Shown one piece after another: positions 59,288 through 63,459 of a stretch of 64,000 nt of DNA (positions are counted from its first letter, which is position 1; each line of letters opens with the position of its first letter). Source of the DNA: Escherichia phage AidaStucki_Bas93. Made by a program: the position numbers and the translations under genes. The DNA lies in the sequence record PQ850593.1. One strand, 5' to 3'. The notes beneath the pieces were generated by a model. That model did not search any database and was not told the DNA's origin. It saw only the letters and a program-made list of their open reading frames with translations.

Positions 59288-61230
59288 CTTTCAATTATAA
59301 GGGCACTATTGCCCCGCTCGCTATGAGCTTTTAAGCCACTATTGACTTAACTATAAACGCTCACTATAAACGCTTATAGGTAAGCGGAGCGGTCTTATCA
59401 GGAGTTAACCTTGCCGCTCCCTTATCCGTGATGTTTCATCTGGTATCTTTAATTAGTCGCTATAAATAAAGCCGACTTGATAGCGATGATCAATCATCAC
59501 AATAAGGCCAGTGTGTCCGACTCAATTTAATTACATTACTGTAACCGTCGGCAATATCGTTTACTCTGCTTTCGCTCCCGCCTATCCTTTTGTATCAGCT
59601 CTTTATCGCTAGTCATCGCCCACTACGGGATACTATTGCGAAAAAGTCACTAACCGCCTAATATTCCGGCGTTTTATATCTTTCGGCAAGTTTACTACAC
59701 AACACGACTATGTACTTTCATCATAAGACGAATATCAAGCCGCTCACGTCGTAAACGTTCACACTAAAACCTTATTGTTAAATAGCAATTTGCCACTTTT
59801 TAACCATTTTCCGCCGCCCGCGATTGGGCGTTAATTCGTCGGGATTGTCTACCCTGATCAACTTCATTCATTGTAGCGCCTTTTTAGCAAGGCCGCCGCT
59901 ACCCATTAACCGTGGGCGATTAGTTTTAGCCTTTGCGTGCACTCAATGATTCCGCTTATCAGTGGGGACTTTTCCAGTAAGGGATCGTAAAACCGTTTTC
60001 CCTGATATTCTAGGGAGTTTTACGCCGTTTTATCTGGTATGCTTTCCGATGGTTATTATCATCCAGCATATTTAACCGATATATGAAAATGTTTAAATTA
60101 TTAAAGAGCGGTAAATCTATCGGACGTGTTTTCTCACGTCATGCAACTGTTAGCCGTTGTGTCGCTTTTTCACTGAAGCGGTGATTTGCTTAGTGACTTG
60201 TGCTCATTATGAATCATTTTGCTTCCGCCGTCAATCACTTTTTTAATCTTTTTTCATCGTTCCCGCTGTTGGGAAGATATATCAATCAGCTGTATTTGAT
60301 TGAAGATCAAGCGATCAGGCTTGAACTTATGATTCATATTTTTAAAGAGCGGTTTTTCTGACTTGTGACCAGTATGAACTTACTTTCTCACGTTGTCAAT
60401 CTCTTTTTTATCATCTTTTTTCATTCTCTTCCCTTATCTCGCGTGCAACTATGCGAAAGGGCAAGATGATAAGTCTGATTTGTCTTTTTGGAATCTAGTA
60501 CGCTTTCAAGCATCAATCTTTTGAAAGTATCGAACAAATAAGGCTTATTGATATTGCTTATTGTCCGCCCGCTTCACGTATGAATCAGGAATCAATTCTA
60601 CCGATCAACTAAGCGCCTTGTAGTAATGACGTCACCGCCACCTAAAAGACAAATCATATTTTTAAAGAGCTGGATTTTTCACGTCATCGCTGACTTGTGC
60701 TCATTATGATTCAGGCTTTTTCCGGTGTCAAATACTTTTTCAAGTATTTTTTCACTTTCTAGCCTGATTTTTAAAGAGCGTTTAAAATTGTATGGCTCCC
60801 ATAACACCATTTGATGACCAGTTAACCTACGATCATTTAGGACTATAGTACCCGCTTAGCTGCGTCTGACTTGCTTCACTCACTAGGGAGTTACTTGAGC
60901 GGTCATCTTGTCTTTCTAAGCTCATTATAGGTTAGGCTTTTCAGTTGTCAAATACTTTTTCAAGTATTTTTTCACTTTCTAGCCTACTTTTTAAAGAGCG
61001 GGGCAATTTCTTGCCTTGTATGTTTTTCATCGTACCCGATGGAAATGAGTATACGCGAGCCTTCAGAAAGTGCAATAGGGATAAGCAAATTATTTTAAAT
61101 TTTTCACTGTAGGGAAGATAGAAGGGCGGGCTAACGTGGTACACCATAGAAAACGGCTTGTAAAGCGATAAGAAACGGCCTTAAACGCGCTACAGCGAGC
61201 TAAAAGGGAGTAAGGAATACAATCCCCTTA
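59288..61230. repeat. ORF-free region with degenerate direct repeats (candidate origin / terminus / promoter array)
   Basis: About 2 kb with no ORF of 60 aa or more; TTTAAAGAGCGG-type motif five times (60101, 60341, 60661, 60771, 60991); a 55-bp unit with palindrome AATACTT-TTTC-AAGTATT repeated exactly at 60726-60780 and 60945-61000. Confidence 0.55.
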
Positions 61231-61259
61231 GAAAAGAAAAAGCGCCTTTATTGGCGCTT
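61231..61259 (-). terminator. rho-independent terminator
   Basis: On the minus strand: AAGCGCC-AATAAA-GGCGCTT followed by TTTTTCTTTTC. Confidence 0.45.
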
Positions 61260-61280
61260 ATAGGGATGATTTAAAGTTTT

Positions 61281-61532
61281 TCACCATTTAGGCAAATCTG
61301 CATCAAGCAGGCCAGCAAGTGACAATTCACCGTCAACATATATCGATCTGAAATCATCTCGATTGATATCGATGCGCACCATTTGCAGCCATTTTTTGGC
61401 CTCATTAAAGCTCATTGAGCAAAAGGCAACCGTGGGCAATATTACGTCACCATTTTGCAAGCTGAACGCTATAAAAGTATCACACACACAACACGAAAGA
61501 CCGTTCGACAATTTAATCACTTTGATACTCAT
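61281..61532 (-). CDS. hypothetical protein
   Basis: 83-aa ORF. Confidence 0.35.
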   Translation of the reverse strand: MSIKVIKLSNGLSCCVCDTFIAFSLQNGDVILPTVAFCSMSFNEAKKWLQMVRIDINRDDFRSIYVDGELSLAGLLDADLPKW

Positions 61533-62392
61533 GTTTTTACACTCCCAAAGATAGGTTATTTATTTGCTGAATTTAGCGCCATAAAACTTACTAATCTTGT
61601 TTTTCGGGCTTAACTTGCTATCAGTGAGCGCTTCAATCACTTCACAAACGATCAGAACAAGTAAAGGAAAGACTACAGCCAGAAACATCATTACCAGAAC
61701 TATCATTTCTATTACTCCAATCAATCAATCAAGAGCCTTCACTTTACTATTGCCTATAAAGGAAAGCAAGTACCACGGGAACAAACAACCGCATAACAGA
61801 CCACGGGAAAACATCGCCAGATAATGCGGTGATATTATTCCACTTAAATAATTAGTTGACTCAAACATCAAACGTTAAAAGAAAAGAATAACAGAACGCT
61901 GAAAAAGAAAAGAATAAAAAGAATATAATAAACATCAAACATAATCTTTCCACTTAATTAATGCATATATCATTATTGCACTCATAATTATCACCATTGA
62001 AACTATTTACACTCAAACTATGGGGAGCTGCGACTGTTACATGACGGTACGACGCGATCGCTGATCGCCTTAAACTATCGGTACAGTGAAAGATCCATAC
62101 AATGGCTAGCCTTTCCCATACTCTTTTAAGGGGCACTAAATAAACGGGTATTAAATGAATAGGATGTTATACACGGGGCAATAACTGCACGGGATAGGGC
62201 ACGGGAAAAGTGGAACGTTGAAAAAGAAGGTAAAGGCATTGCCAATACCCATTTTTTAAATGAGGACTCCCCCTTTTTAACAATTCGTCGCGGAGCGCCT
62301 AGCCCCACTCGGTCAAATCAGAATTTTAAACCCTTATATATAAGCATATGCCCCAACTTTATGTTGTGGATTTAAGCTTGAGGAACTATTTA

Positions 62393-62557
62393 ATGAATCT
62401 AATTAAAGTGTTTAGACGGATGAAATGTAAACACGATTACTATCTTCTTCGTAAAGCTTACGGGGATGAAAGAATACACGGTCTCTATCTATCAACATGG
62501 AAATGTAGGGAATGTGGTAAGTTAAAGTTTAGTGAATGGATAGACAGACCGGGATGA
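62393..62557 (+). CDS. small zinc-finger-like protein
   Basis: ATG at 62393 after GAGGAActattta; CKHD...CRECG pairs; track ORF starts further upstream at 62348. Confidence 0.35.
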   Translation: MNLIKVFRRMKCKHDYYLLRKAYGDERIHGLYLSTWKCRECGKLKFSEWIDRPG

Positions 62558-62564
62558 TAGTGCC

Positions 62565-62710
62565 TTAACGTGACATAGCCTTTATGAAGTCCCCTTTATG
62601 ACATGCCCTTTACTTCAGCGTACACGGGTTGTTAGTATGAGGGTAGTCATCAGAGATGACATGGCCTTTACGGGTAGGTCTTATGATGTGCCCTTTATAC
62701 TTCAGAGACA
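62565..62710 (+). repeat. four degenerate direct repeats TGACAT(R)GCCTTTA upstream of a plus-strand gene
   Basis: Copies at about 62571, 62599, 62657 and 62684 (last variant TGATGTGCCCTTTA). Confidence 0.5.
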
Positions 62711-63408: not shown

Positions 63409-63430
63409 GCCTCCTTTGGGAGGCTTTTTG
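63409..63430 (+). terminator. rho-independent terminator
   Basis: GCCTCC-TTTG-GGAGGC followed by TTTTTGTGTT. Confidence 0.6.
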
Positions 63431-63459
63431 TGTTGTTGATAATGTAGAAGGAGTATAAA

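Follow-up and report, generated by a model that had tools for sequence, protein, structure and literature searches.

A single-locus array of direct repeats linked to terS in Kuravirus phage AidaStucki_Bas93 as a possible packaging-initiation site for the small terminase

We consider here what role is played by a group of short direct repeats near one end of the genome of Kuravirus phage AidaStucki_Bas93 (PQ850593.1), a phiEco32-like podophage whose closest relatives are Bas94 (94.7% identity), Bas92, and LAMP. All positions refer to a 64,000 nt stretch of this genome (the window). A reading made from the sequence only had reported four copies of a motif between two small plus-strand genes, and had suggested an operator or iteron array for a DNA-binding protein, with the small proteins encoded alongside as candidate binders. 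We find that the repeats form a seven-unit array in one orientation and at one locus, and that across distantly related phages the gene consistently linked to it is terS, which encodes the putative small terminase (TerS). Our preferred reading, offered tentatively and from comparison of sequences, is that the array is a cis-acting DNA element that may serve as the recognition and assembly platform for a PaP3-type TerS, and thus as a packaging-initiation signal resembling cosB of phage lambda or pacL of phage SPP1.

All four of the reported copies are present (U1, U3, U4, and U5 in Table 1), and they do not reflect a motif scattered at random. A scan of both strands of the 64 kb window with TGAYRTRSCCTTTA, permitting at most one mismatch, returned four matches, all of them within the array, against 0.32 expected, and none of 100 shuffled sequences reached four. 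A direct-repeat search adds a copy at 62584 (ATGAAGTCCCCTTTAT), the looser pattern TGA-N4-5-SCCTTWA (eight matches in the window, six of them in the array) adds another at 62555 (TGATAGTGCCTTAA), and the gap between the last two of the four copies, at 62671-62683, is occupied by the degenerate unit CGGGTAGGTCTTA. The array is therefore larger than first noted, and consists of seven head-to-tail units in two blocks. Block 1 (62555-62612) has four units with core spacings of 16, 14, and 14 bp, block 2 (62657-62697) has three units of 14, 13, and 14 bp, and the spacer between them is 44 bp long. All of the units are on the sense (+) strand in direct orientation and fall in different reading frames, and they have no dyad symmetry; a repeat search reported no inverted pair between them. 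Each block is followed in the window by CTTCAGNG, a YTTCAGNG element; the hexamer CACGGG, which is present in the spacer, recurs after U4 (at 62670). We derived a position weight matrix from 27 units found in nine relatives, with the window and its two closest relatives excluded. In the window it gives its six highest scores to U0 to U5 of the array (25.1 to 14.0), with the next site at 10.9. The maximum score over each of 20 shuffles averages 13.5, and the highest is 15.5.

Table 1. The repeat array of AidaStucki_Bas93 and the features around it, as positions in the window.
Feature	Position	Strand	Description
Direct terminal repeat, 193 bp	62108..62300		Assigned by homology to records that start at the mapped left end; one copy in this assembly; 62108 corresponds to the physical left end
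gp1 homologue, small zinc-ribbon-like, 69 aa	62348..62557	+	PHROG 7696; weak match to zinc-finger PHROG 24253
U0	62555..62568	+	TGATAGTGCCTTAA; overlaps the gp1 stop codon; matrix score 14.0, borderline relative to shuffles
U1	62571..62584	+	TGACATAGCCTTTA; matrix score 20.0
U2	62585..62598	+	TGAAGTCCCCTTTA; matrix score 25.1, the best in the window; absent from the sequence-only reading
U3	62599..62612	+	TGACATGCCCTTTA; matrix score 20.1; one endpoint of the 85 bp LAMP deletion
Spacer	62613..62656	+	Holds CTTCAGCG (62613-62620) and CACGGG (62623-62628); alignable across relatives
U4	62657..62670	+	TGACATGGCCTTTA; matrix score 21.8
Degenerate unit	62671..62683	+	CGGGTAGGTCTTA; maintains the ~14 bp register between U4 and U5; read from the sequence; conserved in Kuravirus relatives
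U5	62684..62697	+	TGATGTGCCCTTTA; matrix score 22.7; followed by CTTCAGAG (62700-62707)
gp4 homologue, 73 aa	62747..62968	+	First gene past the array
gp5 homologue, 143 aa	62972..63403	+	PHROG 12176, labeled 'ABC transporter'
Intrinsic terminator	63409..63424	+
gp36-type late promoter	63440..63448	+	TAATGTAGA; same sequence as the late promoter of SU10 listed at 1480
Putative small terminase TerS (phi32_6/gp6 homologue), 156 aa	63460..63930	+	760 bp downstream of the array

The array is found in 12 of the 12 Gordonclarkvirinae genomes examined, which represent Kuravirus, Nieuwekanaalvirus, and Suseptimavirus, and in each it comprises three to seven units, always on the + strand, in the interval from the gp1 stop codon to the gp4 start codon. 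Conservation is higher in its first two units than in the genes on either side. Their sequence GCCTTAACRTGACATGGCCTTTATG is almost invariant in nine aligned sequences, the U0 core GCCTTAAC is invariant in nine aligned relatives, and the U1 columns are nearly 100% conserved across the three genera, whereas gp1 is just 52-55% identical between lineages. The locus is also a hotspot of rearrangement, with insertion and deletion of small genes: small open reading frames (ORFs) sit between the blocks in phiEco32 and ES17, another ORF lies past block 2 in MN05, NJ01, and ES17, and LAMP has lost 85 bp by recombination between U3 and U5. A pattern scan of IMG/VR for the array returned only phiEco32 and NJ01.

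More distant relatives were found through the TerS protein, and direct repeats were then sought upstream of their terS genes. Related arrays occur in Grimontviridae, in Lahexavirus, and in Pantoea phage TacPo2, with units of the form TATGAC-N3-4-SCCATC or GGCATG at spacings of about 14, 27, or 40 bp. Nine phages of other families or genera carry such an array (7-11, GAP52, A24, ECO319P1, Privateer, BUCT695, SJSY21, LAh_8, and TacPo2), and in these it lies 70-250 bp upstream of terS and in the same orientation as terS; the corresponding distance in Gordonclarkvirinae is 760 bp. Phage 7-11 has four copies of TATGA-N4-SCCATCWA with spacings of 27, 27, and 26 bp; GAP52, A24, and ECO319P1 have three copies each, with spacings of 40-41 and 28 bp; and SJSY21, LAh_8, and TacPo2 have ATGR-N3-4-GGCATG at a spacing of 13-16 bp. 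Across lineages the spacings group at 13-16, 25-28, and 37-41 bp, as would be anticipated if binding modules were arrayed regularly. Elements of the TCAGTG type follow blocks or units in the distant families too, and ATATGACATGGCAT in Privateer, TATGACATGGCATG in TacPo2, and GATGACATGGCCTTTA in the window are, by eye, the same element. The motif is bound to this locus elsewhere as it is in the window, with four of its five matches in the complete TacPo2 genome and all four of its matches in the first 45 kb of 7-11 falling in the array, so that in each of the three the array is a single locus. In a metagenomic relative (L024) whose TerS is 75% identical, four units lie within a called 269-aa ORF and a second array, of three units, lies directly upstream of terS (1640-1760 and 2390-2480), so that lineages differ in where the array lies and in how many copies it has.

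The gene that is consistently linked to the array across these lineages is terS, and every other neighboring gene changes. Homologues of gp1 and gp4 are almost restricted to the Escherichia and Shigella phages of this group; gp1 has in addition about a dozen matches in phages of other hosts, of which the two listed are weak, and gp4 is limited to Gordonclarkvirinae. Neither was found in the phages of Salmonella, Cronobacter, Proteus, Aeromonas, Vibrio, and Pantoea, the hosts of the related arrays. Binding of the array by these neighboring small proteins, as had been suggested, is thus unlikely, and we reject gp1 and gp4 as candidates since no homologue of either was found in the distant phages that carry an array. 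The identity of terS itself is suggested by a profile of 30 TerS homologues, the top two PDB matches of which are small-terminase chains (7joq, E=0.0044, and PaP3 TerS 6w7t, E=0.18). The large terminase gene (TerL) is next after terS in relatives, and the same small-terminase assignment has been made for phage YF01 (PMC9965538). PaP3 TerS is a nonamer with helix-turn-helix domains and binds DNA sequence-specifically (Niazi et al. 2020, PMC7672466).

The array can also be placed relative to the physical genome end. The phiEco32, LAMP, Paul, and SU10 records begin at the physical left end and have direct terminal repeats of 172-193 bp, and by homology to these records the distance from the array is 448-590 bp to the mapped left end and 255-397 bp to the inner edge of the repeat. 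Both boundaries of the repeat are at a conserved SCT|AGSC (in nine phages, kuraviruses), with TGGCT|AGCCTTTCC at the left (62100-62115) and GCGCCT|AGCCCCAC at the right (62293-62308), and this motif looks like a terminase cut motif. The left boundary site, GGCTAGCC, is palindromic, in keeping with the blunt ends reported for SU10. The first bases of the genome, AGCCTTT, correspond to the unit core, an inverted GCCTTTA core lies within the terminal repeat (62231-62237, minus strand), and the CACGGG hexamer of the array spacer occurs three times in the terminal repeat (62172, 62188, and 62200) together with ACGGGT at 62144; these features are weakly consistent with a role in packaging. We also note that another metagenomic relative (L027) has many CACGGG repeats in the equivalent region (1139-1580).

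We tentatively favor a TerS site because the array is a single locus with a fixed orientation and regular sub-sites, lies at the terminase end of the genome near the left end, and is linked to terS across families. These properties, together with the membership of the candidate binder in the PaP3 TerS family, lead us to propose that TerS may assemble on the units. In 7-11 the array is upstream of the late promoter P1, mapped as GTAATG-N16-CTA at 1637 (PMC8948821), which argues for a role at the level of DNA. In the simplest scheme a TerS oligomer, with a ring of N-terminal helix-turn-helix domains, would engage successive units spaced by ~14 bp on concatemeric DNA, and would place the large terminase for cleavage at the SCT|AGSC sites on the two borders of the terminal repeat, which lies a few hundred bp to the left. 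Packaging would then proceed rightwards from the left end. In T7 the end with the strong early promoters enters the cell first, and by analogy the right end of the Kuravirus genome, where strong early promoters lie, would enter first and the left end would be packaged first, which would fit a packaging signal at the left end. The binding of the array by TerS, the direction of packaging, and the coupling to the cut sites are all steps that we infer. It is more doubtful, if still worth considering, that the array provides the packaging signal for the entire group of podophages with elongated heads (C3 morphotype), namely Gordonclarkvirinae, Grimontviridae, Lahexavirus, and their relatives, in which a ring-shaped PaP3-type TerS would read a ~14 bp lattice and direct blunt SCT|AGSC cuts on both sides of a 193 bp repeat.

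Several observations weigh against a TerS site. In the window 760 bp separate the array from terS, an interval that holds two genes, a terminator, and a promoter, and the left cut is ~450 bp away from the array; both cosB and pacL are nearer to their cut sites. A formal periodicity test of the spacings gives a broad peak rather than a sharp one. The AlphaFold model of TerS is of low confidence (pLDDT 67), and Foldseek found no significant PDB match. The closeness of the array to a genome end is established only for Kuravirus, a search of Grimontviridae records having found no annotated termini, and in the distant families the array is just upstream of a late promoter, so that a role in transcription fits equally well there. 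PaP3 TerS bound a 20 bp cos sequence itself and not a repeat array (PMC7672466), and the isolated SF6/SPP1 DNA-binding domain shows little specificity for pac repeats (PMC4737164), so the presence of repeats near terS is no proof that they are recognized.

By analogy, the closest functional counterparts of the array appear to be cosB and pacL, and the closest in architecture appears to be the ACCTAAAG array of T7. In lambda, cosB is composed of the R3-R2-R1 sites, which are bound by gpNu1. In SPP1, pac, with pacL and pacR, has direct repeats in three sets (boxes a, b, and c, bound by G1P) that span the terS promoters and the start of the gene (PMC4737164). As at cosB and pacL, the Kuravirus element has several short repeated sub-sites gathered at a single locus, at the genome end that bears the terminase genes, where they precede or overlap the start of terS and its promoters. 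Unlike them, it has seven units head to tail at ~14 bp in one orientation, it is in the neighborhood of the cut but farther from it (~450 bp), with two genes between it and terS in Kuravirus, and it belongs to a genome with short direct terminal repeats rather than cos ends or a headful pac. The likeness to PaP3 is that the candidate binder is in the same small-terminase family, in which binding is sequence-specific through an N-terminal helix-turn-helix (PMC7672466), although PaP3 TerS was tested on a single 20 bp cos and PaP3 has cohesive ends, whereas Kuravirus has 193 bp terminal repeats. The T7 sequence contains eight exact copies of ACCTAAAG as well as variants with a CCTAAAG core, mostly 13 bp apart, at 175-345 and abutting the 160 bp terminal repeat, and three further copies inside the terminal repeat. 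Both phages are podophages with short direct terminal repeats, and both have a 7-8 bp core every 13-16 bp in direct orientation, placed internal to the left repeat, with core copies in the repeat. However, the T7 array has ~12 copies and abuts its repeat, whereas here 255 bp and a gene lie between, the core is on the other strand, and the terminal repeat holds one core copy, which is inverted. The T7 terminase and its dependence on the phage RNA polymerase are unrelated to the Kuravirus system.

There are several other roles to consider, and in the distant phages a transcriptional or dual role is a serious rival. The units could be sites for an activator or repressor, including TerS regulating its own synthesis, that control a nearby promoter for the rightward terminase and late gene cluster. 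In 7-11, LAh_8, Privateer, and BUCT695 a GTAATG-N16-CTA promoter of the P1 type follows 30-70 bp after the end of the array, and the TCAGTG(T) with which the blocks end merges into the upstream element of the promoter in 7-11. The pac repeats of SPP1 likewise overlap the terS promoters (PMC4737164), so that packaging and transcription roles could coexist. We nonetheless regard regulation of transcription as an unlikely account of the array overall. In the window there is neither a gp36-type nor a sigma-70 promoter in the array or just past it, the late promoter of terS being 740 bp downstream and behind a terminator, and none of the gp36 promoter matches in the window carries the motif. The motif is also missing from the six other loose GTAA-N18-ACTA matches in the first 45 kb of 7-11, and a general late-promoter element was rejected on that ground. 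Moreover, late transcription was tested in vitro with E. coli RNA polymerase core and SaPh711_gp47, with no additional factor mentioned (PMC8948821). A distinct and decidedly unlikely reading takes its cue from T7, with the array as a set of genome-end short repeats that act in end processing, duplication of the terminal repeat, or DNA ejection or entry, and not in docking of TerS. The period is similar (14-16 bp), the orientation is direct, the opposite-strand core TAAAGG shares TAAAG with that of T7, a core copy lies in the terminal repeat, and kuraviruses are thought to package T7-style, with short terminal repeats. But the promoter region and gp1 part the array from the terminal repeat by 255 bp, and a single array was found, with no mirror array in the window before the right-end repeat beyond one GCCTTAAAC...TACAGTG element. 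To our knowledge the function of the T7 short-repeat array has not been established, so it offers a resemblance rather than a mechanism.

The array could also act at the level of RNA, within an early transcript of gp1 to gp5, where CCUUUA might mask AGAGG sites as an anti-Shine-Dalgarno sequence, or the units might be boxA-like NusB/NusE sites or RNase III sites like those of T7. Every unit is on the sense strand. In the minimum-free-energy fold U3 is paired with UAUGAGGG, and the stretch following U5 with the Shine-Dalgarno region of gp4, and in phiEco32, as read from the sequence, pairing is possible between CCCUUU and the phi32_2 ribosome-binding site, AGAGGG. The NusB/NusE-binding RNA boxA is GCUCUUUA(ACAA) in a transcribed leader, where it is bound by NusB-S10, and UGCCCUUUAC resembles the rrn boxA UGCUCUUUAACAA. 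In addition, U5 (62686-62696) shares the 11-mer GTGCCCTTTAT with T7 879-892 (GGTGCCCTTTATGAT), which lies in the R0.3 RNase III site upstream of gene 0.3; the window has no matching hairpin, so we treat this identity as coincidence. An RNA role is nevertheless improbable. The fold is no better than that of shuffled sequence (z = -1.06), the consensus fold of nine relatives is weak (-8.6 kcal/mol, covariation -0.12) with no hairpin enclosing the units, and there is no match in Rfam. The 7-11 array is upstream of the mapped transcription start, the distant families carry CCATC or GGCATG in place of the CCUUUA or boxA-like core, and the units are in different frames, with small ORFs across them that are not conserved. 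A T7-type RNase III site, an imperfect hairpin of ~20 bp around a conserved cleavage sequence, was rejected in view of the same z value and the lack of a conserved hairpin in the nine relatives. A replication origin whose iterons bind an initiator of the phage or the host, placed in the divergent region that separates the early and late clusters, would account for direct repeats that occur at one locus per genome and at the edge of a large ORF-poor divergent region. It is very improbable, however, in that no initiator-like gene is adjacent in any lineage, terS being the sole consistently linked gene, no AT-rich unwinding element or DnaA-box cluster is seen beside the units on reading the sequence, and no origin is defined for this phage group in the literature searched. 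Finally, the repeats could be functionless scars of repeated insertion and deletion of small cassettes, as the ORFs inserted between or after the blocks in phiEco32, ES17, MN05, and NJ01 and the loss in LAMP might suggest, but this is scarcely credible given that, across three genera, conservation of the units exceeds that of the flanking genes and that a related array persists in other families without these cassettes.

Returning to the proposal of a packaging site, we note that its most general component was already contained in the sequence-only reading, since iterated sites for a DNA-binding protein are still the best description of elements that are conserved, oriented, restricted to one locus, and without a conserved RNA structure. 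The more particular parts of that reading do not hold up as well. The term operator is not supported, the units having no dyad symmetry and no sigma-70 or gp36-type promoter overlapping them, and neither is the term iteron, as implying a replication origin, no initiator gene being nearby. The gp36 promoter is a single element, tAATGTAtA, located 6-8 bp upstream of the transcription start (PMC8948821); with one mismatch or fewer it is absent from 62555-62700, the nearest matches being at 61959 and 63440, and the array was rejected as a promoter for the gp36 phage sigma factor on this basis. A sigma-70 scan found no promoter in the array, and inspection by hand led to the same conclusion, since ATGACA resembles a -35 element but reasonable -10 elements are either 20 bp away or have no -35 partner. 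A coding repeat or coupled mini-ORFs were likewise rejected, the units being in different frames and a 50-aa ORF that ends on the gp4 start codon being broken in LAMP. Host factor sites (CRP, PhoB, CpxR, OmpR, IHF, DnaA, and matS) were compared by eye, and neither spacing nor consensus fitted.

We found no description of these repeats in phiEco32-like phages in the literature searched, two primary phiEco32 papers lying outside that search, and the same literature describes no packaging signal for the phiEco32 group, some members of which are being considered for therapy. In phages with short terminal repeats, the way in which terminases locate and cut the genome is poorly understood, and a terS-linked array at a single locus, combined with a conserved cut-site motif at both repeat boundaries, provides concrete targets for footprinting and mutation. 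If the array does load TerS, it would be the first such site defined in sequence for T7-style short-terminal-repeat phages that have no phage RNA polymerase. Practical uses could include the prediction of genome ends from sequence alone, the construction of plasmids that these phages can package, and safer phage engineering; small genes are prone to be inserted and deleted at the array locus, and new insertions at this place could therefore upset a signal that acts in cis.

The genes and signals around the array are arranged, rightward from the terminal repeat, as a promoter-like sequence, gp1, the array, gp4, gp5, a terminator, a gp36-type late promoter, and terS. The flanking genes are those first described, with a small zinc-ribbon-like ORF upstream and a 73-aa ORF downstream (Table 1), although the true start of gp1 may be at 62393, as annotated in LAMP. 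The 'ABC transporter' label that gp5 bears in PHROG 12176 and in GenBank entries is probably an annotation error passed from record to record, because the protein has no Pfam match and is far too small. Just past the terminal repeat, GGTCAAATCAGAATTTTAAACCCTTATATATAAG (62311-62345) is conserved in all relatives, including Suseptimavirus and the metagenomic relative L024. It was not picked up by a consensus sigma-70 scan of the window, and the authors of the SU10 study included it among potential sigma-70 promoters, assigned to gene 1.

To the left of the terminal repeat is an ORF-poor stretch of ~3 kb (59300-62100) with four strong minus-strand sigma-70 promoters (first hexamers at 60951, 60731, 60399, and 60234) and 16 terminator-like hairpins against 3.8 expected, which is probably an early promoter region near the right end of the genome. 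The unit-like element GCCTTAAAC...TACAGTG is located at 62060-62090, 20-45 bp left of the terminal repeat, where the unique sequence reaches its right end; the window, MN05, and NJ01 have this element and Bas94 does not. The right-end unique region also contains A-rich short direct repeats at 61866-61935, with two copies each of AAAGAAAAGAATAA and AACATCAAAC.

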